A stretch of 64,000 nucleotides of DNA, from NCBI GenBank assembly GCA_030390025.1, contig CM059441.1, forward strand, positions 20,770,001-20,834,000. Reading direction: 5' to 3'. This DNA is from Squalus acanthias. Its lineage: Eukaryota. The stretch's first letter is position 1. Each line of letters starts with the position of its first letter. A program made the position numbers and the translations under genes. The notes beneath the pieces were generated by a model that was not told the origin of the DNA, did not search any database, and saw only the letters and a list, made by a program, of their open reading frames with translations. Positions 3,570-61,123 of the stretch are shown piece after piece.

Positions 3570-3606
3570 CTTAGTCTTTCCTTGTCTGAAGAAAGTAACT
3601 TTTGAC
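3570..3606 (-). CDS. CD300/pIgR-like receptor gene A, exon 3 (short stalk GQKLLSSDKERLR)
   Basis: TTTTTAACAG| acceptor and AAG|GTAAAC donor; 37 nt, phase 1-2; exon and flanking introns align with gene B exon 3. Confidence 0.8.
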
Positions 3607-3939: not shown

Positions 3940-4275
3940 CTTCAAGAACTTTAAGTTCTATTGGACTTAAGTAGTCCAGGAGGCTATGTCTTTCTATTCC
4001 ACACCAGTACCAGCCCTTATCGTTTGTTGTTAATTGCTCCATCTGTACCGTAAGTTGTCCTTTTACGTTGTCGGCTGTAATTTTTATTCTGCCATCATGG
4101 CTTTTCATCTCAGGGCCTTGGGTTTGTACTAACACGATGCAGTTTAGCTTGTTGTAGCCTCTGCACCAGTATTTTTGATGATTGCTGTAATATGTGTCAA
4201 ACCTGCAAGTGATAATGACTGATTTTCCCACTGTTGCACTTTTTACTTTTGGTCCACTTATTGCAGCATGCGTAA
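3940..4275 (-). CDS. CD300/pIgR-like receptor gene A, exon 2 (V-type Ig domain)
   Basis: Acceptor TTACAG| at 4276, donor GAAG|GTAGGA at 3939; 336 nt, phase 1-1, open. Motifs V-x-I-T-C, KYWC-x-G...C (extra C-C' disulfide typical of CD300/pIgR/TREM), GRI, D-x-G-W-Y-W-C-G. Confidence 0.93.
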
Positions 4276-10912: not shown

Positions 10913-10952
10913 CTGATAGGAAAGCAATGGACAGGAGAAGAGTAAAACCCAT
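10913..10952 (-). CDS. CD300/pIgR-like receptor gene A, exon 1 (signal peptide MGFTLLLSIAFLS)
   Basis: ATG at 10952, 13 hydrophobic codons +1 nt, then donor CAG|GTAAGA at 10912. Phase 1 matches the IgV exon. Same 40-nt length as the gene B leader. Confidence 0.85.
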
Positions 10953-23857: not shown

Positions 23858-24606
23858 AAACACTTTGCATTTCTGTATTGGCAGGACTGTGGTGAGTGAT
23901 TTCTATTGCAGTGATAACAATTCACTAAACTGCTCTCACCAACATGCTTTTCACCCAGTCTCACAGCTTTAGGTTTGGCGGTGGCTTTGTGACTGTAGAC
24001 CTCAGCTGCACTAGTCACTTGAGTTGGACAGAGCTCCCTAGCATTCTTAGACACCTTCTCCATAGATAGGGCAATTTTGCATGCTATGTCAAACGTTAGG
24101 TTCAAAGTGTTCAGTAACTTGGACTGTGTGCGCTCATCTACCAGTCCACACACAAACTTATCTTGCAACGCACGATCCAAAAATGTGCCAAAGTTACAAT
24201 GTAAAGACAGGCTCTTAAGAGCTACAATATACTCACTGATGGTTTCACTTTGTTTTTGGTTTCTGGTACCAAACTTATAGCTCTCTGCTATTTCTAACGG
24301 CTTTGGGTCGAAATTGTCCTCGAGTTTCTCGACAATGTCTTCAAACGACGCTTCCTTTGCTTTCCCTGGCGCCAGTAGTTTTGTCAACGTTCTGTAGACA
24401 TCTGGCCCGATCTCCGTTAGAAAAATTGCTTTTTTCCGTTCACGAATTATTTTATTTTGAGCTTGAACATTCTCATCAGCACCTTCGGTCTCAATAATAT
24501 TATTGGCCATAAAAAATATCTCCATCCGCTCAATGTAAGAACTGAATGGTTCGTGAGCTCGGTCATACAGGCCAAGGCTTCCGATGAATCCCGCAGGCGC
24601 GGCCAT
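23858..24606 (-). pseudogene. Gypsy gag, truncated in the zinc-knuckle region
   Basis: YIERMEIFF.AN, F..RNQ...ETI.EY...L..L...CNFG, CYHC...H....C knuckle; jumps directly into RNase H tail sequence. Confidence 0.85.
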
Positions 24607-25686
24607 GATTGTCCCGATCCTGTTGCACAGTGACTCAGCACACTACCTGTGTACCAGTGAGAATCAACGCCGCTGTTGCTGTGTATACATACACACGAAG
24701 GCGAAGCACAGATGATTCTGCATCAGTATTAATGGTAAAACATCGCAAAAATTCAGTTTAGGTGTCACAAATTCACCTTAAACTTGTCCACTCGAAGGTT
24801 GAACACTGTGTCCTTCCATGATCCCTAAAAATGGCTTTGGGATCCCATTCTCGTCGCCAAAATGTTATATATGTGGGTAGAAAAAATGAAGGACAGAGAC
24901 ACCATGAGTTGCTAGTCCATGTGTTTGCTTTATTAGGCCAGAGCGAACTGAGCATGTTCATACTAAACAATGTGACAAACCATGTGATAATACATTACAG
25001 TAGGTGACTTAACAGAAAAATACAGTTGATTTTTAGGACAAAATTACAGCAACAACAGTAATGGAGCACAAAGAAATCGTGTTTTCAGTTCACATTATAA
25101 AGCTAATTTCTGACCGCATTTCTGACAAAGAGCCTCACCCACCAGGATTGTGCATCAGAAACACGCGTGTTCCGCAAGCACACAATTTTCTGACCATTAC
25201 TCTAAATAATTGGGAAATTGTGACTGAATTCCCAGTGAGGCTTTCCCAGCTGCTGAGGCTTCCTGGCAAAAGGGCGAAGTCATAAAATGACCCCAGGTAT
25301 ATATATTCCATGAAATTCCACCGTAACTTTGACGGGATATGAGAGAAACCGTCGGACAAATGGCGCAAAATTACTTCAGGAGGTGAGGAGAACTCCCTGA
25401 GAATTTCCAGTCCATTATATACATTGAAGCTACAAACACATTGAATGGGGAAAAGGCAATTCGGTTGTCAACACTGAGGGCTGATGAATCGATGCTTTGG
25501 CGAACCGTAATCCATTGTTAACCCCCAAATCTTTATTGTGCAAAAGCTAGTCATAGCTATCACTGTTGTGGCCTAAATTTAAACCTATAAGTCTAGAAAT
25601 TCTGACAAGTGTGAAAATTTACACGTCAATAATTAAGTAATGGGGGTGGAAAGGTGGGACTGCAGTGCAGTTGTTGCTGCAGTAAT

Positions 25687-26100
25687 TCATTCACAGGATG
25701 TGGACGTCGACAGCAAGGCCAGCATTTATTGCCCATCCCTAATTGCCCTCGAGAAGGTGGTGGTGAGCCACCTTCTTGAATACAACTGAGTAGCTTGCTC
25801 GGCCATTTCAGAGGGTAGTTAAGAGTCAACCACATTGCTGTGGGTCTGGAGTCACATATAGGCCAGCAGATTTCCTTCCCTAAAGGACATTAGTGAACCA
25901 GGTGGGTTTTTATGACAATCTGGTAGTTTCATGGTCATCATTACTGACACTAGCTTTTTATTCCAAATTTTATTTAATTAACTGAATTTAAATTTCCCCA
26001 GCTGCCAGTAGGTGGGATTTGAACTCACATCTCACAGATCATTAGTCCAGGCCTTCTGGATTACTAGTCCAGTAACATAACCACTATGCTACCATTCCCA
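25687..26100 (-). mobile_element. tRNA-derived SINE, same family as 2475-2898
   Basis: Colinear high similarity to 2475-2898. Confidence 0.85.
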
Positions 26101-27792
26101 TGAACTGCACCCACCAAAAAGCTGAAGTAAGAAACATTCATTTGAAGACGAGTATATTCAATTTATTTTCCACACTCTAGGTTTCGGGCACTGCTAGGAC
26201 TGCATTCAGTGCTCCTCTGTCATTGAACTCGCCAGCTGAAGTTAACTTGAATGGACGCTAATTCACGGGCTGTGAGGGCGCAATTTTGCAATGTTCACTC
26301 CTGGTTTGCCCCAAGCGCAGCGCAGGCTGAACTTTTACCTTTCAGTTCTCCGGCCCATAAATGTGGGTTTAACTAACCTTGTTAATAGTTTCAAACTGTA
26401 CAGCAAGAGACCTATTTGCAGCATTTACCTTGCATTGGGTCGTCGCAACCCTGAAAGAGAATTAGTGACTTTGAAAGCACACAGCACGGCTGTTGCACAA
26501 TATCTGTCAGTCAGTCTATGCCGTACGTATGGTGACTAAAGGCACGATGAGGATAGTCTTGCTGTTCGACTGACTGGACATTCTGCAGTGTATCGACGGT
26601 GCTGGTGAGTTATGAGGCAGTCATATAAAGTTACAGATCCTATTGCCCTGGAAACAAAAAACAATGGATGATTCATATATCGCAATATAGAATGCAGGCT
26701 TTATGTTCAGAGTCAACTTGTGCTTAGCAATCATTACTTTATACACAGCCAATTAATGGAAGATTGTATTCAGGACACGTGTGAAGAAAATGGATTATTT
26801 TTACATGTAGCACAAACTGTAACTTTAAGCTGTTTCTTTTTTCTGGGCTCATCAAGGTGAGGGACCACAATGCTGGGGAATAAGAACCCTTTCCTCCTTC
26901 TCTCGGCATCATGTTAGGTAATCTTACCTAGGCTGTGCTCTTCTGACACTGGGTTAAGGCACATTGTTGGGGCAGGTTAGAGAAGACCTTACTTTTCATA
27001 GCTCGACACTGACAGTGAGAGAGCAACGTGGAAATATTGGTGCCGGCACTCGCGACCCTGTCTTCCACTTTTTCTTCTATATTTGTTTCACAAGTTTTCT
27101 CAAATCATGAAAGCTTTCTTTAATAGAACTACATGGGTCGATTTTAACTAGCCAAAATCGGTGTTAATGGGCGGTAATGATGGAGTCAGTAGATTAACCG
27201 CCTCATTAACGCACTGCCACTTTCAAAGGGGCCTAATGTCGGGTGGTTGAAGCGCCTGCCTGTATCAGACAGTGGGCCTCTTTAAATATACAAATCGGGG
27301 TGCTATGAAGTACATAGGACCCCGATTCCCATTTTAGGATTGAACTGGTCGGAGCCTGCGCCCTGCTCTCTCTGACCAGTTTCACTGAGGTTAGAGCTGA
27401 AGATGCCCTGAGAAGGTAGTTTTGAATGATTTTTGTTGGGCCAGGAAGAGTAGGAGTGCATGGGGACAGGGCAGGAAAATGGAGTTGAGGTCGGAGATCA
27501 GCCATGATCTTATTGAATGGCGGAGCAGGCTCGAGGGGCCGTATATGGCCTACTCCTGCTCCTATTTCTTATGTTCTTATGTTCTCTGGGCCCCACATAA
27601 ATAATAACCTGGGCCGCTGCCCCTCCACGTTCGTGATCTCCCCCGACGGACTTTGATGCTGGCCAAACTATTATAATTTCTGCTTCCACCGTTTCTGATA
27701 AGGCATCTCAAGTCCCAACAATCCTCTACGTAAAAACAGTTTCCTAACCTCTCCTTTTTTTGCAAATATAAGAAGATACTTTCCAATACATA

Positions 27793-29544: not shown

Positions 29545-31505
29545 AGAGCTAGAAATTCATTATAGCCCAGGAATGGACGGTATCTTTAGAAAAGTTTGAG
29601 AACTAGCGCCAGGCGCTAATGCTTTAGACTGCACGCAAAATTCATTCTCACTGCTCAAAGAAATGATTGGGGTGCTAAATCAAGCCTTAAAGGCGTAGCT
29701 CAGTGGCGTTACACTGAAAGGGTGGACCAATATCGGGTGCAGTCTAATCACAACTCATCATTGCCATAGGCTTTTCCCAGTACTTAAAGGGGAGGTTCAT
29801 TGATACTGCAGCACCTCATTCTCAGCATTGCTGGCTGTGCAGCTGCCTCAGCAAGGAGAAGCACAACAAGGAGAAGGAGCCAGAGGACTGAAGCAGGTGT
29901 GCTCATGACAAATCCACCTCAGTCGGGTGGTCAGGGTGATTGAATGCTTCAACAAATGCTACATACCACCATCTGAACCACAAGCTTCACACACTGCCCA
30001 AAGCACCAGACCCCCAGCGCTCACCCACCAACAATCTCTACCTACCAACACTCACACCCACATCTCACGCCTTGCACACAATGACAGCTATTCAACTATG
30101 GCAGGTACAAGGGTCATTAGTTATTAGAATGAATGTGATGTGTGTTATGTTTATGCATAAATTTATTAATGGAGTTTGTAATATTTTGTGGTCTCTCTCA
30201 TTTCACCTTTGTGCCAGGAGGACGCTGTGATATGGCATGACACAGGGATGGTATGATGGGCATGTGGTGAGCAAAAGGGATCTGGGGTTTAAGTCATCCT
30301 GGTGTGAAGCTGGAGGTCTGTTTGGAGGAGGTGGCAGAGTTCTGTGACCACCTCCTTGGCGATGCGGAGCCGCCTAATACACTGCTCCTCACTTAATTGA
30401 AGGTAGGAGAAGTGCTGTCAGAATACCCTCAGAGGGTAAGGCCTCTTGGTGAGAGCCCTGATGTCCCTCCTCATCCCTCTGCACACATGTTCCCGTATTT
30501 CTCGCTGCCTATGCTTCCTCCACTGTAGATCCTGGAGGGCGAGGTGGCATGCCAGTACAGCTCCCATTAGTGTTGCCAAGTGTAGCAGTTTGAATCTTTG
30601 AGTAATAAATGTAGCTACTTTGCACTTGCCAGAAGACTGCTGATACAAAAGCTTGAAATTACTCATACAAACTGTTCCACTGGGTGAAACTGACAAGAAA
30701 GCACTGAAACTAACCTGCCCTGACAGCTGCGAGTGATTAACATAGACATAGAATCTAGGAGCAGGAGTAGGCCATTCGGCCCGTCGAGCCTGCTCCACCA
30801 TTCAATACGATCATGGCTGATCATCCAAATCCAGAACCCTGTCCCTGCTTTAATCCCCACAGTACACATATCCCACCCTACCCCCGTAACCCCACGTATT
30901 TAATTCCCCCTAACATATCCCATCCTATCCCCATAACCCCACATATTTAATCCCCCCCTAACACTAAGGGTCAATTTATCATAGCCAAATCAACCTAACC
31001 CGCACATTTTTTGACTGTGGGAGGAAACCGGAGCACCCGGAGGAAACCCACGCAGACACGGGGAGAATGTGCAAACTCCACACAGACAGTCACCCGAGGT
31101 CAGATTCGAACCCGGGTCCCTGGCGCTGTGAGGCACCAGTGCTAACCACTATGCCACCGTGTTAATGTTGATGCCTTTAAATAACATCGCTGAAGCCGGC
31201 TTCCTGCAGCTGCACGCCAGCTCTCCCTGTCACTGTCTGGTCGAGGAGCTAAGGTAAGTGGCGACAATCAATTTTCCAGATCGGGCGGCCAGTGAACATT
31301 GAACTCTCACTGATGTCACGATCTGCCTGGTGTTGAAGTCCCCGGCAGTACCTCGTACCGACGGCACAACGGGAGGGCGGGGGGGGGGGCGCGGATTTGC
31401 CGTGCGGCGCTGGATTCGCCTCACCCCAGCGCTACTGCATCAGTGCCCCATTACCACCATCTGCAGGCGCTAACGGGAGGCACTAAGCTACTGAAATTCC
31501 CCCCC
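29545..31505. mobile_element. Internally deleted non-autonomous Harbinger (hosts the V-SINE)
   Basis: TIR-like ends and subterminal blocks shared with 50742-55013; retains Myb intron 1 sequence (~29930-30110) and transposase N-terminus (MGAVL...RPYPLRVF, ~30310-30570, minus). Confidence 0.75.
30740..31162 (-). mobile_element. V-SINE (HE1-like) with CR1-derived tail
   Basis: Head GGTGGCATAGTGGTTAGCAC..GGGTTCGAATC; V-domain TGTGGAGTTTGCACATTCTCCCCGTGTCTGCGTGGGTTTCCTCCGGGTGCTCCGGTTTCCTCCCAC; tail matches local CR1 3' ends. Confidence 0.88.
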
Positions 31506-31847
31506 ACAATGTTAATGAACTTAATATACTCAATATAAAACGCACCAACATAACTTAATTATACGGCACCACATTTAGAAAACTCACTTACTAAATGCTC
31601 ACTGCATATACATTTAAGTTTGAAAGCTGCTTGATTGGTCAACAAGAAAATCTTCCCTAAATATGATCTCAGTAAAAGATAAAATGGGCACATGTTTACT
31701 TCAGAAATAGGTTGTGCTTATGGTTCTTTTATCCTTTTAGAAATATTTATAATGAGCAGATTTAAAAGAATTCTTTCAAAGTTTTCGTAGTTAAGCTTAA
31801 GTGCACAGAAAGGATTAAAAAAAAACAACTTACCAGTTTTTCTTCAC

Positions 31848-31947
31848 CTATATTTTCACTTGGACTAAAATGGCCCAAACCAACAGAATGGCAAAGAATA
31901 CCCAGCGAAAAATGCTCCATATAAAATAGTACAGCGAATTATTTTTC
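31848..31947 (-). CDS. CD300/pIgR-like receptor gene B, exon 4 (transmembrane, KNNSLYYFIWSIFRWVFFAILLVWAILVQVKI*)
   Basis: Pyrimidine-rich acceptor ...TCTACCTAG| at 31948; phase 2 joins the stalk in frame; hydrophobic helix with Arg; TAG at 31850-31848; donor CTG|GTAAGT at 31833. Total CDS 40+333+55+100=528 nt (175 aa). Confidence 0.85.
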
Positions 31948-32053
31948 CTAGGTAGATAGAAGACAAAATGGTTTAATCTGAACAGTTATCTAAAGCCACA
32001 GAATTACCTTGGACATATGAATCATTTGGTCACACTTGTGGTGGAAAGATAGG

Positions 32054-32760
32054 GGGGGAGAAATTCATTATAGCCCCATTTGGGGCGTTAACTTTTAAAA
32101 GTTGAAAATATTAGTGCCAGGCACTGACGTTTTTCAACTTTTAAAAAATTTGTTTTTTCGCTCCAGGAAGGAAGTGGAGCGCTAAATCAAGCTGAACAGG
32201 CAGCGGGCGGGGCGGTAGGTGAGCAGCGCTGCTGCGTTGGAAGGCTCCTTCCCTCCCTTAAAGGGAAGGGCCATCGCTGCAGGCTCTGCAAGAGGAAAAC
32301 TTACCTGGTCCCTGACGGCAACTGCGATCCGGCCCGATCAGCCTGATGCACTGCAGCAGAGTGCCGGGCTGATCGATGGCTGGTGAAGAAAAATGAAAAA
32401 AAAAACTGCAAGACCATTTGAGAATTTTTTCCACTTACCTCGGCCACCTCGCCTTTAAGTATCGCCCCCGAAGCGCCCGGCCTCCCGATGAACGCCTCCT
32501 GCAGCTGTCGGTGTCATCGCCCGGCGATGTTGCAGGGGGCGCAACCGAAGTTCGGGTCCGGGGAGCTACGCACGGCGATGATGTCACGATCTTCTGGCGA
32601 AGGAGATCGGGGCGCAACGCCATACCGCTGCCCCAAACCTCCCGCCGAATATAGCGGGAGTCGATCTCCTCGCCGTGGTCGGTCGGTAAGTGCTTAGCGC
32701 CATGTTATCGCCTCTGGAGGTGATAACTGGAGGCGCTAAGGTGCCCAATTTCTAGCCCCC
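32054..32760. mobile_element. Harbinger-derived MITE (~0.7 kb)
   Basis: GGGGGAGAAATT / AATTTCTAGCCCCC ends; GCCCCATTTGGGGCG, GTGGAGCGCTAAATCA, GGAGGCGC shared with the autonomous element. Confidence 0.8.
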
Positions 32761-33578
32761 CCGGAGTGTTTCTGCTTCCGAGCTCCTGGTACACGCTGCA
32801 AGATTACACGCCTCGGCCCGTGACATTCTATCTATTAAAATCAGCGGACAGAAAGTATCGGGTTGGAAGGTGCGCTATCGCCCGGTATTAGCATGTGCCA
32901 AGAGCATTGAAGTGGCAAATCACCAGTTTATTTTTCCCGATAGATATGAGAATATAATGACAGCATAGTATCACGAATCAGCTTCTACTGATTTCCTTGT
33001 GATAAAAATACTTGTTAAAATTAAAAGCAAAAACAGAAAACGTGGGAACAGGTCAGTCAGCAATCACGGAAAAAGCAGCTGAGTTCAGGCGTAGACTCTT
33101 TTTACACAGGATTACACAGGATATACGGCACAGAAACAGGCCGTTCGGCCCAACCAGTCCATGCCAGCGGCGTTTATGCTCCACTCGAGCCTCCTCCCAC
33201 CTTTCCTCATCTAAACTCTCTCAGCGTAACCCTCTGTTCGCTTCTCCCTCATATGCTTGTCTAGCCTCCCCTTAAATGCAACTATACTATTCACTTCAAC
33301 CACTCCCTGTGGTAGTGAGTGCCACATTCTCGCCACTCTCTGGGTAAAGAGAACTGAAACGTTAACTTGTCTGTTTTCTCCACAGATTCTGTTGAGCCTT
33401 TCCACCATTTCCTGTTTTCGCTTTGGAATTGCAACATCTGCGGGGTTTCGCTTTTTGTTGTTGTTAAAATGTATTTTTGTGTTTTGATCTAAACATACAA
33501 CAAGCACTGTGAACGGAAGATGTCAGTGGGCAGTTGTTTGCGAGTTTTAAGTGCAATACTTAATTAAAAAAAAACATT

Positions 33579-33748
33579 GGGGGTAGTTTTAACCTAACTC
33601 AGCGGGCAAGAAACCCACGGGATCGGATGGCACATCGCTTTTACACCCCCGCCCAATATTAAAACCGGAGTGCGGGTGGGTTGTAAAACCAGCATTGCGC
33701 CAAATCCCATCAGTTTCCTGACAAGCCAGTTGGGTTAAAATTGCCCCC
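33579..33748. mobile_element. Small MITE
   Basis: TIR GGGGGTAGTTTTAACCTAACT / AGTTGGGTTAAAATTGCCCCC. Confidence 0.75.
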
Positions 33749-34451
33749 ATAGAAGCAGTTTGCGAGAGATTAAAGTACCTTTTCAGATCATATTTCTTGC
33801 ACAGTTTGATAAACTGCAGGACTCTTGGGCAATGTCTTCCGTAAGCCGCACTGCCTCCTGCGCGGCCTGCCTCCCCCCAATGCGTGGACCATTCTAGTTT
33901 TTGCGTGCGCGCGCCGTATCTACAATGTAAAAGCCGGCGAGCGGCCTGCGCGGGAACTCGCAGATGACTGCGCGGCCACGCAGCTTAGCGGGAACATTGC
34001 TCTTGGGTGTATCAGACTTTCGTAGGCCTCCATCCTGCGGAGTAGTGAACGGATGGTGTGAAATTCCAATCCATGGGGGTTCAGCGCCTGGAATTTCCGC
34101 TGCTGATCTCTCACTGTAACGGCCGTTTGTACCATTTCTCCGGGGCTTTCGCCGATCTCCCGCCAAAGTTATGGCGAGAGATTGGGAGAGGCCCCGTGCA
34201 AATCTACCCCCAGATCTTTAGCTAAAACTAAAGTAATCAGAAATCCATTTTTATGTCATGGTAATTCTTTCGCTGATTTTGGTAGTTAAAGGGTGGCAAA
34301 TTAAAATATAGCATTGGTGCGATTGGTGATCCTCTCCTGGGTCTGTGAGCTGGATTTTAACTTTCGGGAGTCTGAGTGCGTGAGGCGGCTGACTGATAGT
34401 GCTGTCTCTCCCAGCTTTTATTTCTATTCACATCAACAGGAGAGTTGTAAA

Positions 34452-34912
34452 ACAGCAGGAACAGCACCTCATCTTTCGATTAGGCACTTTACAGCCTTCT
34501 GGACTTAACATCAAGTTCAACAATTTCAGACTATAACCTCGTCCCCTATATGTTTTTTTCCTTTTTTCTCTTACATGGTAGCTGTTGATCATTCTGCCAT
34601 CGCCATTTACACCTCATCTAGAGTCATCTTTTGTTCCTTAACTTGTCCCATTACCTCTCTTTTTGCCTTGCACCATCAACCCCTTTGTCAGCCAATCTCT
34701 CCTGCCTTCCAGCCTATCACAGTCCTTCCCTTTTGTTCTTTCCTCCCCTCCTCCCTGTCCCTGCCCCTACACTTGCTTAAAAATCTGTTACTTCTCTAAC
34801 CTTTTCCAGTTCTGATGAAGGGTCATCGACCTGAAACGTTAACTCTGTTTCTCTCTCTCTCCTCGATGCTGCCTGACCTGCTGAGTGTTTCCAGCATTTT
34901 CTGTTGTTATTT
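34452..34912 (+). mobile_element. Penelope-like element 3' fragment with pseudo-LTR
   Basis: GGAACAGCACCTCATCTTTCGATT.GGCACTTTACAGCC as in the other two copies; hammerhead at 34808-34844. Confidence 0.85.
34808..34844 (+). ncRNA. Minimal type I hammerhead ribozyme (Penelope pLTR)
   Basis: AGUU-CUGAUGA-A-GGGUC(AUC)GACCU-GAAA-CGU-U-AACU. Confidence 0.8.
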
Positions 34913-35176
34913 GAGGTGTAAAACGGGCTGCCCATTCACTGTCACGAATTTTACTTTATCCCATAAAGTTAAAAATACCCCCTTTGATTCTGATGCGAGT
35001 GTAAAAATCTGCATCTTGTTCCAGAGCACTGACATCCCACGCTGGGCAAATCTTCACCTCCCCTGAGAAGCGAGGATGATCTCTCGTATGGCAGTGGGAC
35101 GTTACTCATTATTACAGTTGTGCAAATTCAGAACAAATGCTCAGAATGAACCAGTGTAAACAAGTTTGACATTTAC

Positions 35177-35231
35177 CTTTGGATTTTCATGTCTGACGGA
35201 TAATCTGAGGATGAAGGAAGTAACTTGGGAG
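35177..35231 (-). CDS. CD300/pIgR-like receptor gene B, exon 3 (stalk APKLLPSSSDYPSDMKIQR)
   Basis: TTTTTAACAG| acceptor, AAG|GTAAAT donor; 55 nt, phase 1-2; 18 nt longer than the gene A exon. Confidence 0.82.
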
Positions 35232-35486
35232 CTGTTAAAAAATAGTGTAAAGAATTGTGATTAGATTATTCAGTCTGAGCCATCGGTGATAAATTTGTAC
35301 TAATTAGTGATAAAAAAAATGGAAGATTTCATGGGATAGAATTAGTACCAAAATTAAACACTTTGTCGTTTTTCACTATTCTGCTAGTTTACTTTTAACA
35401 GAGTTATAACTTTCCGCTGAAAACGTTGGAAATTTTGCAAAATATATAATAAATCTTGCAGCAAACTATATAAAATCAAAAATGTA

Positions 35487-35695
35487 TGACATGAATCTTG
35501 TATGAAGTAATACTGGGCGGCCTGCTGGTGGCGCTGTCCAGGGAGAGTATAAATACTCGGGCATGAGCCCAGCTTGCTTAGGACATTCCTCGACAGGAAC
35601 TAGTGAAGGACACAACTAGATCTCCATGTTGAAAACCAGTTGATTAAAGCTTTGTTTAACACTTAGACCAAGTGCCTAGTAGTTTTCTTACGTCA
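35487..35695 (+). mobile_element. Solo LTR, 209 bp, in intron 2 of gene B
   Basis: TGAC...GTCA termini, 5-bp TSD ATGTA, TATAAA near 35548 and ATTAAA near 35643; absent from the homologous intron of gene A. Confidence 0.85.
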
Positions 35696-35745
35696 ATGTA
35701 CAGTTGAAAAATGTACACAATTATAAATGTATATTCAGGTCCTAC

Positions 35746-36078
35746 CTTCACTGACTGTAAGGTTTACAGGACTTAACAGGTCCAGAAATTTTTTTTGAAT
35801 TCCACACCAGTACAAGCCTTGGTCATTCACCGTTAATCGTTCCATCGTGACTGAAAATTCCCCCGCTTCATTATCAGCTGCAATGGTGATTCTGCCGTCA
35901 GAGTTTGCCTTCCAAGGGCCCCGGGTTTGTACTAGAATAGTACAGGCTGTCCAGTTGTAGCCTTTACACCAGTACTTTTGATAATTGCTGTATACTGTGT
36001 CATAGGTACAGGTGATATGGACCGATTGTCCCACTGCTCCATTCACGACATCTGGTCCACTGAGTGCAGCGCATGTAA
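35746..36078 (-). CDS. CD300/pIgR-like receptor gene B, exon 2 (V-type Ig domain)
   Basis: Acceptor GAACAG| at 36079, donor GAAG|GTAGGA at 35745; 333 nt open; ITC..KYWCKG..C..GRI..DQGLYWCG; about 58% identical to gene A V domain by hand alignment. Confidence 0.93.
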
Positions 36079-36437
36079 CTGTTCAGTGTGAAATTATAAC
36101 ACACGTTTTAAAGTACAATAAAAGTAAATAAATGTAACAGTTTAATAGCATATTTTGAATGCTTAAATTTTAAATATGTGTATTGAAACTCATGAACTTA
36201 ACCTCCCAATTTGATCATTCTAACGGTGTGTTTGAGGGTCTTCTGTGCTTACGGTGTTTTGCAAAGGAGTACAGACAGTATTCTTTATTGAAACCCTGCT
36301 GTCCTTGCAGAAATATGGACTCCAAGGGTTAATTTACCAGGAGAGATGACACAAACTAGGGTTGTATTCCCTGGCATCTAGAAGGTTAAGGGGTGATTTG
36401 ATCGAAGTTTTCAAGATATTAAGGGGAACTGATAGGG

Positions 36438-37225
36438 TTTTTCTTTATTCGTTCATGGGATGCGGATATCGCTGGCAAGGTCAGCATTTTTTGCCCATCC
36501 CTAATTGTCCTTGAGAAGGTGGTGGTGAGCCGCCTTCTTGAACCACTGCAGTTCATGTGGTGAAGATACTCCCATAGCGCTGTTAGGGAAGGAGTTCCAG
36601 GATTTTGACCCAGCGATGGTGAAGGAACGGCGATATATTTCCAAGTCAGGATGGTGTGTGACTTGGAGGGGAACTTGCAGGTGGTGGCGTTCCCATGCGC
36701 CTGCTGCCCTTGTCATTCTAGGTGGTAAAAGTTGCGGCTTTGGGAGGTGCTGCCGAAGAAGCCTTGGCGAGTTGCTGCAGGGCATCTTGTTATGGTACAC
36801 ACTGCAGCCACGGTACGCCGGTGGTGGAGGGAGTGAATGTTTAAGGTGGTGGATGGGGTGCCAATCAAGCGGGCTGCTTTGTCCTGGATGGTGTCGAGCT
36901 TCTTGAGTGTTGTTGGAGCTGCATTAATTCAGGCAAGTGGAGAATATTCCATCACACTCCTGACTTGTGCCTTGTTGATGGTGGAAAGGCTTTGGGGAGT
37001 CAGGAGGTGAGACACTCGCCACAGAATACCTAGCATCTGATCTGCTCTTGTAGCCATAGTATTTAAGTGGCTGGTCCAGTTAAGTTTCTGGTCAATGGTG
37101 ACCCCCAGGATATTGATGGTGGGGGATTCGGCGATGGTAATGCCATTGAATGTCAAGGGGAGGTGGTTAGACTCTCGCTTGTTGGAGATAGTCATTGCCT
37201 GGCACTTGTGTGATGCAAATGTTAC
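36438..37225 (-). mobile_element. Zenon/L2-like (CR1-group) LINE 3' fragment
   Basis: ILGVTIDQKLNWTSH, KAQVRSVMEYSPLA, KSWNS.P; 3' tail shared with the SINE at 2475. Confidence 0.8.
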
Positions 37226-37344
37226 TTACGACATTTGCACCACACAAGATATATATAAAGAAACTTTTTCCGCTGAATGGGCAGTCTAGGACTAAGGGAC
37301 ATAACCTAAAAATTAGATCCAGGCCTTTCAGGAGTGAAGTTAGA

Positions 37345-37780
37345 TTATGAGGAGAGATTGCATAAACTAGGCTTGTATTCCCTGGAATATAGAAGCTTAA
37401 GCAGTGATTTGATTGAGGTTTTTTAGAAATTTGAAAGGAATTGATTGGGTAGATCGAGAGAAACCTTCTCCGCTGGTGGGGGAGTCTAGGACAAGGGGAC
37501 GTAACGTTAAAATCAGAGCCAGACCATTCAGGAGAGAAGTTAGGAAACACTTCTTCACACAAAGGGTGGTAGAAGTGTGGAACTCTCTCCCACAAATGTC
37601 TCTCCCAGTAGATGCTAGCTAATTAATACTTTTAAATTTGAGATCGATAGACTTTTACTAGCAAAGGGTATTAAGGGATATGGAGCCAAGGCAGGTGGAT
37701 AGAGTTAGCATCCAATAACAGCTATTGAATGACAGAACAGGTTCGAGGGGCTGAATGGCCTACTCCTGTTCCTATGTTCC
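37345..37780 (+). mobile_element. CR1 3' end (preceded by a second partial copy at ~36340-36437 and ~37255-37343)
   Basis: SRTRG, HFFTQRVVEVWNSLP, 3'UTR hairpin. Confidence 0.85.
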
Positions 37781-38184
37781 CTCTCAAAAGCCAAGTGGGA
37801 ACAATAAAGATCTTGCAAATGTTTTGGGAGGGTCCTATCACCAAACAATTCTACCCAGATATCTTCATCTGTATTTAAACTTTCTAACGATGGTCACCAC
37901 AACAGATGGTGCAGTGATTGTAGCATATCTCAATGTTGTTGTGAGGGTTTTGCGTTGATGGCAGCAGCCACAGGTTGAATGGTGACACTTGATCCTCCCA
38001 CAGGCATTCAGTTAAACATCCTCAAATATTGCCGGTAGACAGGAATGAATTGGGCATCGATCGCGGGATAATTTGCAGTGAGCACATCTATGCATCACAG
38101 GCAGCCCTGCATATCAAGGGCTGAGACATCGAATGCAGATTTCTTGTGTTTCAATGAGTATACAGTCGATAACTGCTGAACTTG

Positions 38185-38975
38185 AGGATAGCTGGGATGG
38201 TTCTCCTTAGAGCAGAGAAGGTTAAGGAGAGATTTAATAGAGATGTTCAAAATTATTAAGGGTTTTGATAAAGTAGATAGGGAGAAACTGTTTCCAGTGG
38301 CCGGAGGGTCAGTAACCAAAGGACACAGATTTAAGATAATTGGCAAAAGGACCAGAGGGGAGATGAGGAGAATGTTTTTATGCAGCGAGTTGTTGTGATC
38401 TGGAATGCGTTGCCTGAAAGGGCGGTGGAAATAGATTCAATAGTAACTTTCAAAAGGGCGTACCGTGGCTGCAGTGTGTACCATCTACAAGATGCACTGC
38501 AGCAACTCGCCAAGGCTTTTTCAGCAGCACCTCCCAAATCCGCGACCTCTTCCACCTAGAAGGACAAGGGCAGCAGGTGCATGGGAACACCACCACCTCC
38601 AAGTTCCCCTCCAAGTCACACACCATCCTGACTTGAAAGTATATCGCCGATCCTTCATCGTCGCTGGGTCAAAGTCCTGGAACTCCCTCCCTAACAGCAC
38701 TGTGGGAGTACCTTCACCACACGGACTGCAGCGGTTCAAGAGGCGGCTCACCACCACCTTCTCAAGGGCAATTAGGGATGGGCAATAAATGCTGGCCTTG
38801 CCAGCGACTCCCACACCCCATAAATGAATTAAAAATAAAAAAAATAAAAAAATACTTGAAGGGGAATTAAAATTGCAGGGCTATGGGGAAAGAACAGGGG
38901 GAAGTGGGGATAATTGGATAGCTCTTTCAAAGAGCCAGCTTAATGGCTTCCTTCTGCGCTGTATATGATTCTGTG
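38185..38975 (+). mobile_element. CR1 3' end interrupted by a Zenon-like LINE fragment
   Basis: CR1 sequence stops at ~38458 and resumes at ~38851 (AATACTTGAAGGGG). Confidence 0.85.
38457..38850 (+). mobile_element. Zenon-like LINE 3' end with A-rich tail
   Basis: AAVCTIYKMHCSNSPRL...KSWNSLP; same family as 36438-37225. Confidence 0.82.
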
Positions 38976-40139
38976 ATATTAAGGCTGTGATTTTACCCTT
39001 GGCGATGGGTTGGAGTCGGGTTGGCTGTTCGGTGGGTTCCGGTCCCGCTGCCGGTTGCCGTCGCCCCGCAGATGAGATTTTACATTGATTGGCCTCGTTA
39101 CGGCCGACGTGCGGGTCCGTCCAGGCACTTGCTTGCAGAGTGTCAGATGCTCGCGTCTAATGATGCGCTGTTTCTGTAAGGATTTAAAGGGGCCATGTCC
39201 CCTTTGCAGAAGCATTAGCTTTTTTCTGTCAAAGGTGCTGGTTGCTGCAGGATTGGCAGGGCCAAAAACTAAGGCTGCATCCAGGTTCAAAGTTGGTATT
39301 TTTAACTCAGGGCCACCCGATTAGCACCTGATTAACAAAATAAGTGTCAGGCCTCCGAGTTTTGTGTGGTGATCTCTCGCGCCCAATGTCCGCCAGAACT
39401 GCGCTTGATGCCATTTTGTGGATCCTTCTGCCAGATTTGACTTCCTGAGCACTGGATTGGCCCATTTTAATACCAGTCGGGGAAGGCATTATACCAGCAA
39501 AATTTTAAAGGAACCCTCAGCTGCAGTTAGGTAAGTTTCTGGTTGGTCGTCGGAGACTGCTAGTGGGCTTTTACACCTATTTCTAGCTTTGTTGACTGCT
39601 GTATTTGGCTTCAAAAATAGTAACTTTCCCGCTGTAATTGAACTCTGCCTGAATAGAACCTATCGATACCCATCTCCATCTGTTGGTTCCCAAGGAGGGA
39701 AGATGGAATCAGAGGAGGCATGCAGTACAGGCCAACCTAGACATCCTAGAAGCTTGTACTCTGTTATGTAAAGGGCCAGTGGCAGAAAAGCAATCAACCC
39801 TTCTATGTAAGTCAATGAACATGTAATATGCAAGTACCTTGTGTTGGCTTTATGCCTGGTGTTTGTTCCTTGCCACATTTCATGGGTCACAGGGAAGATG
39901 CATTGACGTGGCAGCTATACAGAATGCAATGCTAAAACATAGGCATGCTTGTGCATTTAACCAGTGCGTGAATAGGTGCCAGAATGCCAGTGCGATGCTC
40001 CATCAAGCTTGCAGTGAAGTGCTATTACTACGACTACTTTTGTATGACAAGAGATGTGATTAGCAACCTTCAAATAACCACGTCTAGACTGGCGAACCAG
40101 TGGGCACCTACAGAAGTGACTTGGTATAAGTCTGAGATA

Positions 40140-40700
40140 CCAGTGGCAAGCAATCAAAGCGGGCATTGACTTACAACGTGGTCCATAATTTGCGATTGGT
40201 GTCCACGGTCACATTGTGCGTTGTCCCTCATCTTCTACAAGTGTAAGAAATGACCGCACCTGACGGAAACGGTCCAATACGGACCATTGTTTCTGGGGTA
40301 GGTTGAATCCTGGAAGTTCTTTTATGGGGTTGGCAATCGGGTATTTGTTTGGGACATTCGCATAATCCCAGAACTCTTTCCAGTGGGCCTTTAGGATTGA
40401 ATGAGGAAACTTTAAGAGAGTTAGGCTAATCCCAAAAAGGTTTGTGAGATTTCAGCTGTGTCTTCGGAAGGCTCTGGAGATCCTCCTGAATTGGTATGTC
40501 CAGGCTGGCATGGGGTCGATTGTACTCATGAGTTCTTTGGATTTTGGATGGGGTATATGTGTCATTGTGGGCAACCATTCAATGGGTGTTGCTTTTAATG
40601 TTCCAGTTATGAATCCTATTGTGGCATTAAGCTATGCGCTCAGAGATTTGGTATGTGAGCTGGCCACCCAGAATGATGGGAATAGGGTCACTAAGGGATT
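40140..40700 (-). mobile_element. Decayed Vingi/Ingi-like LINE 3' fragment
   Basis: Minus-strand peptides LNATIGFITGTLKATPIEWLPTMTHIP and LPGFNLPQKQWSVLDRFR resemble the Vingi C-terminal region. Confidence 0.65.
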
Positions 40701-40711
40701 GACAGGATAAT

Positions 40712-42189
40712 ACCACAGGCAGTGATAGAGAGATGGCAGAAATTTTAAATAATTACTTTGCCTCAGTATTTACCAGGGAGATAGAACAGGTGGACATGAC
40801 ATTGGATCATGAGATGAGTAGTGAAATAACTGCATTTAAAATAAAAAGAGGAGATATATTAAGTAAACTAATCAAACTCAAAGAGGAAAAAACACCTGGA
40901 TGGATTACATCCGTGCATTTTAAAAGAATCTAGCGAAGAGATAGCAGCGGCATTACTACACATATTTAATAATTCATTCGAAAAAGGTGTAGTGCCAGAG
41001 GTCTGGTGGATAGCTAACGTAATACCTATTTTTAAGAAGGAGATAGAACATGTGCAGGGAACTATAGACCAGTCAGCTTAACATCGGTGGTAGGAAAAAT
41101 AATGGAATCCTTACTAACAGAGAAAATAGAAGAACATCTAGAAGCCAAAAATATAATAATGAAAAGTCAACATGGATTTCAAAAGGGAAAGTTTTGCTTG
41201 ACCAATCTCATTGAATTTTTTGAAGAGGTAACAGAGAGAATAGACAAGGGTAATGCAGTAGATGTAATTTATCTAGATTTTCAAAGGGCCTTTGATAAGG
41301 TATAACATAATAGACTAATGAATAAGGTCAGAGAATGCAGAGTCAGGGGACAAGTAGCAGAATGGATAGTTAGCTGGCTTCAAGACAGAAAGCAGAGAGT
41401 AGGGGTAAAGGGTAGCTATTCACAGTGGCAGAAGGTGGGAAGTGGTGTTCCACAAGGATCAGTGCTAGGACCACTGTTGTTTACAATTTATATTAATGAT
41501 TTAGACTTTGGAATCAAAAACACAATTTCTAAATTTGCAGATTACACCAAATTGGGAGGGATAGTTAATACTGAGGAGGACAACAAATTACAGGAAGACA
41601 TTAATAAACTTGCAGAATGGGCATATAATTGGCAAATGAAATTCAACACAGATAAATGTGAGGTATTACATTTTGGTAGAAAGAATAGGGAGGTCACTTA
41701 TTACTTGGAGGGTGTGAGTCTGGGTGGGGTAGAGGAGCAAAGGGATCTCAGAGTACAAATACACAAATCACTAAAAGTTGTGACACAGGTTAACTAGGCC
41801 ATAAAAAAAGCAAACCAGGCACTAGGGTTTATTTCTAGAGGGATAGAATTGAAAAGTAGTGAAGTTATGCTAAACTTGTATTGAACCTTGGTTAGCCCAC
41901 ACTTGGAGTACTGCGTACAATTCTGGTCGCCATATTATAAAAAGGACACAGAGGCACTGGAGAGGGTGCAGAGAAGATTTACAAGGATGATACCAGAAAT
42001 GCAAGGGTATACCTATCAGGAAAGGATGAACAGGCTGGGTCTCTTTTTGCTTGAAAAAAGAAGGCTGATGATGACCTAATAGAGGTCTTTAAAATTATAA
42101 AAGATACAGAGAGTGTTTCCACTTGTGGAGAAGAGCATAACTAGAGGTCATCAATTTAAGATAGTCACCAAGAAAACAAATAGGGAATA
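40712..42189 (+). mobile_element. CR1 LINE RT fragment (AT-rich subfamily)
   Basis: ORF pieces 40733-42079: DFQRAFDKV, GVPQGSVLGP, LEYCVQFWSP. Confidence 0.92.
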
Positions 42190-42980
42190 GATCTTTTCCT
42201 TGTGTCACAATGTCATCATCTCAGTCCCCTCATCTAAGTCATTGATATAGATTGTAAATAGCTGAGGTCCAAGCACTGATCTTCACGGCACTCCACTAGT
42301 TATACCCTGCCAACCCGAAAATGACCCATTTATTCCTACTCTCTAATTTCTGTACGTTAGCCAATCCATGCTAATATATTACCCCCAATCCCATGAGCCC
42401 TAAACTTGTGTAACAACCTCTTGTGTGTTACCATATCAAATGCCTTCTGAAAATCCTAATATACTACATCCACTGTTTCCCCCTTATCTACCCTGCTAGT
42501 TGCACCCTCAAAAAACTCTAATAGATTTGTCAAACACGATTTCCCTTTCATAAAACCGCATTGACTCTGCATAATCATATTGTGATTTTCCAAGTGCCCT
42601 TTTACCACGTCCCTAATAATGGATTCCAGCATATTCCCTACTACTGATGTCAGGCTAACTGACCTATAGTTCCCTGTTTTCTCTCTCCCTCCTTTTTTGA
42701 ACAGTGGGGTTACATTTGCTACTTTCCAATCCACAGGGACCGTTCTAGCATCTAGGGAATTCTGGAAGATCACAACCAATGCATCCATTATCTCTGCAGC
42801 CACCTCTTTTAAAACCCTAGGATGTAGGCCATCAGCTTCAGGGGATTTGTCGGCTTTTAGTCCCATTAATTTCTCCAGTACATTTCCTTTTACTAATAGT
42901 AATTACTTTAAAGTTTCTCACTCTCACTAGACACTCGGTTCCCCATTATTTCCAGTATGTTCTTTGTGTCTTCACTCTTT
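42190..42980 (-). mobile_element. CR1 LINE RT fragment, opposite strand
   Basis: ORF 42866-42456: KSP..DGLHPRVLKE, NYRSVSLTSVVG, SCLTNLLEFFE. Confidence 0.92.
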
Positions 42981-43309
42981 CTGATAGATCCTTCCGTTTT
43001 TGTGCTACTCGCCAGAGGTTGTTGCACTTATTACTTGTTAAAAATTGCCGTTTAGTTTTACTTTACTTAATCTTGTGCAATAAGGCTGCTGAACATAATA
43101 GTGCGACGAGTGGAACAGTAACAAACAAGGAGCGATTAAAAAGGTTACGACATTAGGCAGGTGTACGCCATGCTGTAACAGTATGAAGAGGCTTTTCTTA
43201 GCAGCAGATTACTGACGCACCAAACTGCATGGATGCATAAAATGGCTTGAATTATTCGAAACAGAAATTTAAATAAACCTTACAAGACTAGTTAAAGCTG
43301 CATTAAAAT

Positions 43310-43858
43310 GAAAGAAAAAAAAGAAGAAAGACTTCCATTTATGTGGCATCTTTCATGACCTCAGGATGTCCCAAAGTGCTTTACAGCCAATAAAATACTT
43401 TTTGAAGTGCAGTCACTGTTGTAATGTAGGAAACGCGGCAGCCAATTTGCGCACAGCAAGCTCCCACAAGCAGCAATGAGATGAATGACCAGATGATTTG
43501 TTTTAATGGTACTGGTTGAAAAAAAGGGAAGACTTGCATTTCTATAGCACCTTTCACAACCTCATGATGTCCCAAAGCGCTTTACAGCCAATGAAGTACT
43601 TTTGAAGTGTAGTCACTGTTGGAATGTTGAGGGCTAAATATTGGGCAGGACACCGGGGAGAACTCCCCAGCTCCTCTTCAAAATAATGCCATTGGATCTT
43701 TTACATCTACCTGAGAGGGCAGACGGGGCAGCACTCGTTCAGTACTTCACTGGAATATCAGCCGAGATTTTTGTACTCAAGTCTCTGGAATGGGTCTTGA
43801 ACCCACAACCTTCTGACTCAGAGGATAGGGCGCTACCCACTGAGCCACAGCTGACACC
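43310..43858 (-). mobile_element. SacSINE1-like SINE with two 3' tails (nested or duplicated)
   Basis: tRNA head ~43790-43858; tail sequence present at ~43320-43515 and again at ~43525-43625. Confidence 0.8.
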
Positions 43859-44114
43859 AAAGGAAAAGGCCGGGGTGGATTTTCCCATGCCTGGGAGTAT
43901 TGGTATTCCCGGGCACAGCGTATGTAGGAAAATTGGGTAGGGAGCCCATCTGATTATCAGTCCATTTAAATTAACTGCTGATGTTTACAAACTTATAATT
44001 AGACAAACGTTCTGGAAGAAACTTCTGCTAATAATTCTTAATTCTATAAAACTTGCACTAATAGACACAATTGTCATATAGCCACATATGTTCATAGCAA
44101 TTGTTGTTACTTAC

Positions 44115-44154
44115 CTGAGAAGGAGATCATGAAAAGATGAAATGCGAAATCCAT
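44115..44154 (-). CDS. CD300/pIgR-like receptor gene B, exon 1 (signal peptide MDFAFHLFMISFS)
   Basis: ATG at 44154, 40 nt, donor CAG|GTAAGT; phase 1; similar to gene A leader. Confidence 0.85.
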
Positions 44155-50740: not shown

Positions 50741-51100
50741 TGGGGGAAAAATTAGGTCGCGCCCCATTTGGGGCGCAAATATCGTCTGGACGCAAATATT
50801 AGCGCCTGGCGCTAATTATCGCCACTGACTGGAAACTTCACTTTTACCGCCCCGGGAGGTGAGTGGAGCGCTAAATCAGGCACTGCACACCTGTCTTAAG
50901 GCGCAAAGGCCGAGCAGTGAGGGGCTAACTCAGCGCGCGAGCGCAGCGCAGCTGCTGCCAGTTAGCGAGGGAACACAGACACACTGGCGCCGGCCACTTC
51001 TTAAAGCAGGGGGGGCCAACTTGCTCCCCAGCCACACCCTGCTCATTGCAGCCTTGAATCTCGGCCTGGAGAGACCTGTGAATCCATTTTGCTGCCAAGG

Positions 51101-53028
51101 ATGGAGAGGGAGAGAGAACGAGCTCATCGCTTCACCGAGCGGGCCTTGGATGCTCTGGTTGGCGCGGTGGAGCGCAGAAGATGTATACTCTTCCCTGAGA
51201 GTGGCAGGAGGCCTTTGCCACGCGAGTTCAGAAGAGTGTGGAGGGAGGTGGCTCAGAGCGTCTCCTCCAGGAGCATGGTGCCCAGGACCCATACTCAATG
51301 CCGCAAAAAGTTCAACGACCTCACTCGGGTCGTCAGGGTGAGTGGCTTTTTCTCAATACCTCTCCATCCCTCCATCTCAACCTCACTCTATGGCCAGAGG
51401 GTCTTAAAACCCCAATGCACAACACTCATCCAACACCTATGGCCCTTTCATGAAACACACACACACATTCCACACTTTGCATACAGTAAGGGCTATTCAC
51501 CTATGGGAGGCACATCAGGCAAGACCATGGCTGCATACAGTAAGGGCTATTCACCTATGGGAGGCACATCAGGCAAGACCATGGCTGCATACAGTAAGGG
51601 CTATTCACCTATGGGAGGCACATCAGGCAAGACCATGGCTGCATACAGTAAGGGCTATTCACCTATGGGAGGCACATCAGGCAAGACCATGGCTGTATAT
51701 TTACTCAGATGCTGTCCTTTTTCTTGCAGGCCAAGCTGGCGCATAATCGGAGACAGCAGCAACGGACAGGTGGAGGGCGGCCTCAGCTGCAACCCCTCAG
51801 CGATCTTGAGGAGCGCGTCCACAGGATTGTGGCAAGCCGGGTGATCGGTCCCGTCGCCACTGGAGACGCCGACCCCGTTGTGGACAGCAATGGTAAGGTC
51901 ATCACCTTTTTGTCCTCTGTCCTTCCACTTGTTCCTCACAACACCAGCCTTTGACACTTTCAATCCAACTTGCTAACTCGCTGCACTTATTCCTCCCTTA
52001 CTGCCACCCTGTCCTCACGCTAAAGCCACTCTTGTACCTCCCTGCTTTCAGATGGTGATTCACCAGCTGAGGAGATGGGCCCTGAAGCTGCCACTGGGAG
52101 TGAAGCTGCAGCCGAGGAGGAAGAGGAAGCCGGAGCATCAGTGCCACCCTCTCCCGAGGAAGCCCATGCCCACACTGGGAACACGCCTTCCCTGGAGGGG
52201 AGCAGGGGGGAAGGGTTTGATGAGGGTGAAGCTCCAGGACCCAGCGGGCTGCAGCAACGCCATGGGGGTAGGGAAGAACGGGGGCCTTCTCCCCAGAGGG
52301 AGAGTATGCCAGACACTCCTACTGCAATGGACGCAGAGGAGGAGCGGCTGATTGCAGAAATGAACACCCAGGCGGTGGGCATGCACACTGAGCTCATGGG
52401 TGCAGTGGGAAGGGTGCCCGAATGCATTGAGTCACTGGCAAGGAGTGTGGAGCACTTTGCTGTAGCACAGGCGGATGCCACACTAACGCTTAGTGCTGCA
52501 ATTCAGTCACTGGCTGCCATGATCCCATCTCTGACTGCTCTCATGCAGACTCAGATTGAGGCCACGCGAGCACAGACTGCTGCCAACCTCGATGGTTCGT
52601 TCACATGTCCCCGGGGCTGTCACCGCGCCGCAGCAGGCCAGCAATCTGTTCTCCAGCAGATTGCTCCGGATGCTGAAGTGCTGCCCCGTGGGAGTGCCAG
52701 TGTGTCGGTCGAGCAGGGAGTTGCTGTCCTCTCTCACGATGACAGCATTCCTGCTGCCAACACTGTCACTTCTCCACTGTACTTGCCACCGCCTGTAGGA
52801 CAGACTGCTGCCGCCCATGCAGAGTTGGTGCAGTCTGCAGCCGGGCCCTCCAGGCCCAGAAGTGGTCGAGGCCGTCCTTCAGGGGCATCTGCAGTGTCAG
52901 GGTCTGACGAGCAGCAGCCTTCCACCAGCCTTGCTGCAGCCACTGAGGTCCCATTACGGAGGAGCAGTAGGGTTAGAAGGGGGGAAGTGCGCAAGGGAAG
53001 GAGATCACCCTCGAAGGGCAAAAAGTAG
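51101..53028 (+). CDS. Harbinger Myb/SANT (trihelix) DNA-binding protein, 3 exons: 51101-51337, 51730-51892, 52052-53028 (458 aa)
   Basis: RF..AL.ALV..V......LF....W..VA..V......RT..QCRKKFNDL Myb/SANT motif; donors GTGAGT and GTAAGG, acceptors TTGCAG and TTTCAG; phases 0 and 1 give one uninterrupted frame; basic C-terminal NLS-like tail. Confidence 0.88.
51479..51694 (+). repeat. 54-bp tandem repeat, 4 identical copies, in intron 1 of the Harbinger Myb gene
   Basis: Unit GCATACAGTAAGGGCTATTCACCTATGGGAGGCACATCAGGCAAGACCATGGCT with period 54. Confidence 0.95.
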
Positions 53029-61020: not shown

Positions 61021-61123
61021 GATACGGAGTGGAGCTATAGTAGGGGGTGATGCACAGCCAAATATAGAGGAAAAAACAAGTCAGTCTGGAAGGCAGAGCA
61101 AATATGTAACGGCACAAGGGAGT

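Follow-up and report, generated by a model that had tools for sequence, protein, structure and literature searches.

The window analysed here, a 64,000-nucleotide (nt) stretch of Squalus acanthias (contig CM059441.1, positions 20,770,001-20,834,000), carries on its minus strand a receptor gene, termed gene A, that codes for 175 residues in an intact reading frame. The protein consists of a signal peptide, one V domain, a short stalk and a membrane helix with no cytoplasmic tail, and by sequence it is the counterpart of a skate protein that already bears the name modular domain immune-type receptor (MDIR). A sister gene, gene B, lies 21 kilobases (kb) downstream on the same strand. With somewhat better than even confidence, gene A is read as an intact five-exon member of the MDIR family in which Arg157 of the membrane helix would dock a zeta/FcR-gamma-type adaptor that bears the ITAM (immunoreceptor tyrosine-based activation motif). 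Gene A would form the activating half of a pair with an inhibitory gene B, and it would sense phospholipid through a metal pocket of the CD300 type.

Exon structure and transcripts of gene A

The first-pass annotation proposed that four exons splice in frame to a 175-residue protein, and this holds. Exons 1 to 4 (Table 1) are bounded by AG acceptors and GT donors, join in phases 1, 1 and 2, and include a V-set domain recognised by Pfam in exon 2 with an E value of 5.8e-17 and a score of 62 bits, where 26 is the cut-off. Residues 1-13 are the same in the Stegostoma counterpart, and a 5' untranslated region (UTR) of about 100 nt likely lies upstream of exon 1. The protein contains the cysteine pairs Cys37-Cys105 and Cys51-Cys59 and sequons at N55 and N119. 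Exon 3 codes for an 18-residue stalk that leads into the membrane exon, where Arg157 is situated in the hydrophobic C-terminal end. The protein stops 18 residues after this Arg, at a TAG codon at 31850-31848, and 14 nt of 3' UTR separate the stop from a donor. The reality of the gene is indicated by counterparts of 164-175 residues and equal build that are annotated in other sharks and rays; the Heptranchias counterpart is identical at 134 of the 175 residues.

Table 1. Exons of genes A and B, in window coordinates.
Feature	Positions	Strand	Content	Basis
Gene A exon 1	44115..44154	-	coding part 40 nt, signal peptide	ATG and GTAAGT donor
Gene A exon 2	35746..36078	-	333 nt, CD300-type V-set Ig domain	Pfam V-set; Foldseek; on contig X1-1
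Gene A exon 3	35177..35231	-	55 nt, short stalk, phase 1 to 2	splice sites; tblastn of P0003; contig X1-1
Gene A exon 4	31834..31947	-	membrane helix with W-x3-R-W (Arg157)	splice sites; counterpart motif; contig X1-1
Gene A exon 5 (inferred)	26066..26647	-	3' UTR here	acceptor at 26647; Narcine extension match; repeat edge
Gene B exon 1	10913..10952	-	signal peptide	matches start of P0001, P0148 and P0021
Gene B exon 2	3940..4275	-	V-set domain	Pfam V-set E 1.5e-14; groups with Pristis P0001, 96-98 SH-aLRT
Gene B exon 3	3570..3606	-	stalk	12 of 13 residues match P0001

Four of 12 read runs were compared over positions 31400-36300, a stretch outside which exon 1 lies. No run is recorded as RNA; run X1 is predicted to be probable RNA. 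In X1, a contig of 1232 nt (X1-1) matches exon 4 at record positions 582-695 and, further along, exon 2 at 752-1088. Neither match shows a substitution, and the 56 letters between them fit the stalk exon, the depth of the stalk bin (9.92) being equal to 29 x 56/164. Exons 2, 3 and 4 are spliced together in this one contig, which supplies the joints assumed for these three exons in the first-pass annotation, including the segment 31848-31947, though with one additional T (see below). The contig holds 144 more letters 5' of exon 2. In run X2, which comes from a second study, a short record (record 15) has 56 unmatched letters and then matches from the exon 2 boundary onward; this start fits a splice from exon 1 and supports the joint of exons 1 and 2 indirectly. 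Exon coverage is partial in run X2, and run X6 yields no useful exon coverage.

The only full contig, X1-1, carries an additional T in the run of eight T at 35789-35796, which shifts the frame and weighs, together with the points gathered in a later section, against the reading given at the outset. Homopolymer errors are common. The eight T are kept, with no insertion, in DNA run X7 from a related organism, and the genome frame of gene A is the frame common to the counterparts in a gap-free alignment; because of these two observations the ninth T is put down either to a homopolymer slip or to a null allele. If gene A were a null or polymorphic pseudogene in Squalus acanthias, the inserted T would be explained, and there would be a parallel in activating CD300C, repeatedly lost in primates according to an excerpt of PMC12447643. 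Against the intact assembly frame and the absence of the insertion from run X7, this explanation is very improbable.

On its 3' side, contig X1-1 departs from the genome sequence at 31833, and a further 581 letters follow. Because the donor 14 nt past the stop is used, gene A would have a fifth, untranslated exon (Table 1). The 26-residue extension of Narcine isoform X1 (P0157) finds its best ungapped match at 26646 (score 30, next 25, over 127,840 window positions), in the frame that the exon-4 donor dictates. Counted from the acceptor, 582 letters reach about 27 nt into a repeat, a place at which a contig would be expected to break off. One splice joint 14 nt after a stop would not trigger nonsense-mediated decay.

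Read through the gene A stop, exon 5 offers one in-frame Tyr motif. This motif and the position of the donor suggest a premature stop or a recently lost tail, an idea that is rejected since 13 of the 14 counterparts end at the same place and the Tyr has no equivalent in the Narcine extension. Skipping of the stalk exon, in turn, shifts the frame of the membrane exon and gives a 151-residue form, possibly a soluble isoform; a comparable frame-shifted end is seen in the Cetorhinus model P0181.

Counterparts and the V domain

A search with the V exon returns five full-length gene A counterparts among six candidates, a profile search 17 proteins among 1,159, and a search for 'longer' proteins two matches among 85 candidates, while an Atlas search gives only CMRF35-like, pIgR-like and V-set clusters. 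The motif W-x3-R-W, followed by an end 17-18 residues after the Arg, is present in 13 of the 14 gene-A-type proteins compared, in line with the Arg-containing membrane segment and absent tail of the first-pass annotation. The exception is a Cetorhinus isoform, whose membrane exon is apparently read in another frame. As the counterparts span sharks, skates, rays and the chimaera Callorhinchus, the missing tail is old and no artefact.

Among these proteins, P0177 is the 'Modular domain immune-type receptor' of the clearnose skate Rostroraja eglanteria (UniRef RepID A0S0E7, 164 residues), a source name that carries no MDIR number. BLASTP aligns its V domain to that of gene A with 69 of 110 residues identical (63%) and no gaps, and 97 of 164 aligned residues are identical overall. 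Like gene A, P0177 has one V domain with an Asp at C+8, a short stalk, and a W-x3-R-W helix that ends, without a tail, 17 residues after the Arg. In a quick tree P0177 falls with the counterparts from Amblyraja and Leucoraja inside the clade of genes A and B (98 in the Shimodaira-Hasegawa-like approximate likelihood ratio test, SH-aLRT). The shark protein differs in having a stalk longer by about 10 residues and a CC' loop that contains a sequon, and the sequences point to no difference in function.

According to an excerpt of PMC3031540, which cites Cannon et al. 2006 (PMID 16738934), MDIRs are a multigene family with activating and inhibitory members related to CD300, TREM and pIgR. A multigene build of this type is found here as well, in sister gene B and in multi-domain relatives with Arg or uncharged helices. 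The MDIR1 of that 2006 work reportedly carries a positive charge in its membrane segment, and P0177 would agree with that form. Proteins of the same length class and C-terminus as gene A are predicted by NCBI as 'CMRF35-like molecule 2/3/5/7' in Heptranchias, Heterodontus, Mustelus, Stegostoma, Chiloscyllium, Amblyraja, Leucoraja, Narcine, Mobula, Hemitrygon and Callorhinchus; the numbers are automatic names and imply no orthology to mammalian CLM genes. Predictions of gene A thereby exist for some twelve chondrichthyan genomes. Apart from the MDIR mention in PMC3031540, the open-licence literature yields no paper that deals with the gene, with its Arg helix or with an adaptor for it. The first-pass annotation had inferred a combination of a CD300/pIgR-type V domain with FcR-gamma-type coupling. 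This combination is not new, since the skate counterpart has its MDIR name and FcR-gamma is already used by mouse MAIR-II (with DAP12 in addition) and MAIR-IV (PMC2803305) and by human CD300C, via a Glu (PMC12447643).

The AlphaFold model of gene A (predicted local distance difference test, pLDDT, 81) was used for a Foldseek search, in which chains of CD300lf/CLM-1 occupy ranks 1-10 (E about 2-6e-8) and pIgR D1 is found at E 1e-6. In CD300lf, as described in part of PMC6166816, phosphocholine lies between complementarity-determining region 3 (CDR3) and the CC' loop on C36-C44, Y34, W89, M100, Q41 and R42, and a cation is held by K94, G96 and D98. The gene A residues Y49, C51-C59, W104, C105, K109 and D113 have the spacing of CD300lf Y34, C36-C44, W89, K94 and D98. 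The pair Cys51/59 corresponds to the second C-C' disulfide of CD300, here in a single V-set domain, and Asp113 is located at the CD300lf metal site (C+8), where 11 of the 14 counterparts also have Asp.

The V domains of pIgR (mammalian D1; teleost pIgR, PDB 5F1S) belong to the same clan, with about 33-36% identity to gene A. Aligned to human pIgR D1, gene A shows a two-residue gap in CDR1, and the pIgR domains are without the CD300 Asp that gene A has; gene A further differs in its single domain, its charged helix and its lack of a cytoplasmic tail. Because the pocket Asp is kept, the D1 CDR1 residues are absent and CD300lf comes first in Foldseek, gene A most likely works like CD300 and not like pIgR, as far as sequence and model indicate. 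Membership in the CD300/pIgR clan, as first annotated, therefore stands, and a likeness to pIgR D1 does not.

For the same reasons gene A was rejected as a shark pIgR. The build of a transcytosis receptor is likewise absent, as one V exon is spliced to a stalk exon and a membrane exon with the stop at the end of the helix. The relevance to the missing shark pIgR that the first-pass annotation drew is not supported, given the absent D1 loop features, the kept CD300 lipid-pocket Asp, the single domain and the lack of a tail with a sorting signal. A related possibility is an immunoglobulin-binding receptor of pIgR-, Fc-alpha/mu-R- or Fc-mu-R-like type that would serve shark leukocytes as their activating Fc receptor, with IgM, IgW or IgNAR as the ligand. 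It would agree with the sequence and fold matches to pIgR domains, including trout pIgR, with a tree that leaves the clade between CD300 and pIgR, and with the account, in excerpts of two papers, of cartilaginous fish as being without pIgR and known Fc receptors (PMC4016189, PMC13337447). Set against the absent CDR1 insertion, the Asp shared with CD300, the Foldseek order (CD300lf E 2e-8 versus pIgR 1e-6) and a single domain with no tail for transport, such a role is quite improbable.

A quick tree was built from 106 columns and 82 rows, representing 34 chosen proteins and domains of at least 80 residues. In it, the domains of A and B fall into a single clade (99 SH-aLRT, 13 of the 82 rows), with a B subclade at 98, and the tetrapod CD300-like domains form a clade at 97. 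The relation of the A and B clade to tetrapod CD300 and to pIgR domains, the phylogeny that the first-pass annotation had looked to, is drawn open in this tree.

The membrane arginine, its probable adaptor and sister gene B

The Arg helix with W-x3-R-W is carried by 25 of the 183 proteins examined, in which the motif occurs 26 times. Nine multi-domain models from Hemitrygon, Leucoraja, Mustelus, Carcharodon, Narcine, Mobula and the sturgeon Acipenser possess it, and the V domains of these multi-domain proteins fall in several clades of the tree. Among the matches listed, the exact motif is found in bony fish only in sturgeon P0061; the range of helices in the relatives comes from the best 150 of 2,864 matches, a set that favours multi-domain proteins. 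Around the 26 occurrences, charged residues are found at -3 (five) and -6 (four), whereas the whole stretch from +1 to +14 has a single one. By a crude insertion scale, Arg157 would occupy helix position 2-8. This charge pattern favours a location of Arg157 in the outer part of the helix, at the outer leaflet.

Since gene A has no tail, its signal must come from a partner, and dependence on an adaptor is very probable from the sequence. In an excerpt of PMC13107469, CD89 binds FcR-gamma via an Arg near the top of its helix, which reads Q-N-L-I-R, and NKp30 and NKp46 are assumed to do likewise; an Arg in this position marks zeta/gamma partners, a Lys at the centre of the helix is present in every known DAP12 partner, and NKG2D pairs a mid-helix Arg with DAP10. 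Three gene A counterparts read W-N-I-x-R, close to the CD89 sequence. CD89, NKp46 and NKp30 share with gene A the outer-helix Arg and a small polar residue one turn above it; their ectodomains, of the C2 type in CD89 and NKp46, differ from that of gene A, and the analogy is functional only. Gene A combines an Arg in the N-terminal half of the helix, by a crude estimate of depth, with the lack of a signalling tail, which is the arrangement of zeta/FcR-gamma (RDD) receptors. Because Arg157 appears near the outer face, a zeta/gamma partner is favoured and, provided that an adaptor is used at all, would probably be the choice rather than DAP12 or DAP10.

Basic residues at a similar helix position also appear in pIgR-like proteins of early-branching teleosts, all with short tails: Conger (P0083) and Albula (P0141) read L-R-x-T-G, and Brienomyrus (P0130) reads L-K-A-G-T-G. 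These helices possibly descend from the same activation module. A teleost pIgR with the Arg helix of gene A was not confirmed; an excerpt of PMC9321927 describes teleost pIgR with a Leu-rich helix and a 51-residue tail and makes no mention of an arginine.

The V domain of gene B is 58% identical to that of gene A. The membrane and tail part of P0001 finds no match in the 64-kb window, and the corresponding exons of gene B probably lie beyond window position 1. In the counterparts of gene B (Pristis P0001 and P0002, the first part of Stegostoma P0021, and P0182), an uncharged helix is followed by a tail with two or three motifs resembling the immunoreceptor tyrosine-based inhibition motif (ITIM), and the gene B of this genome is expected to have an inhibitory tail as well. 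Genes A and B are likely an old activating/inhibitory pair, and they may share ligand and cell type. No unrelated marker gene was recognised in the 64-kb window. The mammalian CD300 pairs (CD300A/C; mouse MAIR-I/II and MAIR-V/IV) resemble gene A in the single V domain, the second C-C' disulfide and the CDR3 Asp, and they resemble the pair in having short-tailed activating and ITIM-bearing inhibitory forms side by side, some of which reportedly use FcR-gamma. They differ in a Lys or Glu in place of the Arg, in tails of 20-24 residues, and in the closeness of the partners.

The other points on the contrary side concern the pocket, the pair and the adaptor. AlphaFold confidence is low at residues 97-110, part of the pocket loop; the equivalent of CD300lf Arg42 is not kept (Thr57 in gene A); Asn replaces the pocket Asp in Narcine and chimaera-clade proteins; the sequon at N55 of Squalus gene A is located in the CC' loop; and the position of the A and B clade relative to tetrapod CD300 and pIgR is open in a quick tree of 106 columns. 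The chances that the ligand of gene A is a lipid are judged to be even. The 58% identity of genes A and B is far below the 91-92% given for mouse CD300 pairs in part of PMC2803305, so that a shared ligand is uncertain. At the membrane, Arg157 lies 15-17 residues from the cytoplasmic edge, and the Lys or Glu of mammalian CD300 lies at 15-16 in four of five rows; as the register is the same, the depth of the Arg alone cannot pick the adaptor. Of the FcR-gamma-type signature that the first-pass annotation saw in this residue, the invariant Arg in the outer helix is supported, and FcR-gamma itself is a candidate partner. Dual adaptor use by MAIR-II and the Arg-DAP10 pairing of NKG2D blur the choice further. 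In addition, an excerpt of Akula 2014 reports that no FcR-gamma chain was found in shark data (PMC4016189), and nothing newer than 2014 on shark FcR-gamma was found in the open-licence literature.

The register, the MAIR-II and NKG2D pairings and the failure of the 2014 survey to find a shark FcR-gamma would all suit an activating receptor that uses DAP12, DAP10 or several adaptors and whose Arg is the shark equivalent of the CD300 Lys. The eight-residue aromatic stretch before the gene A Arg would also suit it, as the helix could start earlier. This alternative is unlikely, though, as the charges tolerated at -3 and -6 in the relatives point to an Arg near the interface and the known DAP12 partners have their Lys at the centre of the helix. 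A non-signalling surface protein or decoy would dispense with the ITAM adaptor altogether, its Arg snorkelling at the interface or serving A-A or A-B dimerisation. The Trp residues that flank the Arg are common at interfaces, and the best 19-residue windows begin only 2-5 residues before it. However, none of the 13 counterparts with an in-frame membrane exon, from sharks and rays to chimaera, has lost the Arg, and in the single-gene models inspected the motif is accompanied by short ends free of tyrosine motifs, whereas long tails with tyrosine motifs follow uncharged helices, which makes a decoy improbable.

Neighbouring elements and the place of gene A in its family

The remaining sequence of the window contains several mobile elements. 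A Harbinger/PIF-like DNA transposon at 51005-54663 consists of a 440-residue open DDE_Tnp_4 frame on the minus strand (E 7e-40), a Myb/SANT-domain gene on the plus strand that faces it (E 2e-8) and, at 51424-51747, a tandem repeat with a 54-nt unit; a look for terminal inverted repeats gave no clear ones. Near 19270-21290 there seems to be a decayed copy of this transposon. Between genes A and B, at 22060-24999, two 137-nt direct repeats, 93% alike and 2.8 kb apart, belong to an element resembling a long terminal repeat (LTR) retrotransposon and enclose gag-like and integrase-like frame pieces, labels that were read by eye. On the plus strand at 60040-63937, an element resembling a long interspersed nuclear element (LINE) has open frames of 326, 417 and 452 residues, endonuclease-like and reverse-transcriptase-like by eye, and shorter LINE fragments are found at about 40700-42900 in intron 1 of gene A.

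A wider and more doubtful picture can be drawn from the distribution of the helix. Genes A and B would have stood side by side as an activating/inhibitory, phospholipid-sensing pair since before the split of sharks and rays, and W-x3-R-W would be an ancient, portable module that coupled the ancestral CD300/pIgR clan to zeta/FcR-gamma. The module is seen in sharks, rays and chimaera, where several V-domain clades unrelated to one another carry it, and in one receptor of a sturgeon. In that case, tetrapod CD300 would have acquired its Lys-DAP12 wiring later, by a change at this position of the helix. The conserved pairing of A and B, the kept lipid-pocket Asp and the Arg helix in sturgeon were not found in print in the open-licence literature; the pairing, the pocket Asp and the spread of the helix are modest additions.

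As a gene, gene A adds little, being the counterpart of a named skate receptor and predicted elsewhere before, and the place of the missing shark pIgR is not filled by it. It is, within an otherwise fast-turnover family, a stable and apparently one-to-one member with a conserved partner, an invariant Arg and a recognisable pocket. These properties make gene A a convenient probe for two matters: which ITAM adaptor the innate receptors of cartilaginous fish use, and whether lipid sensing or antibody binding was the ancestral job of the CD300/pIgR clan.

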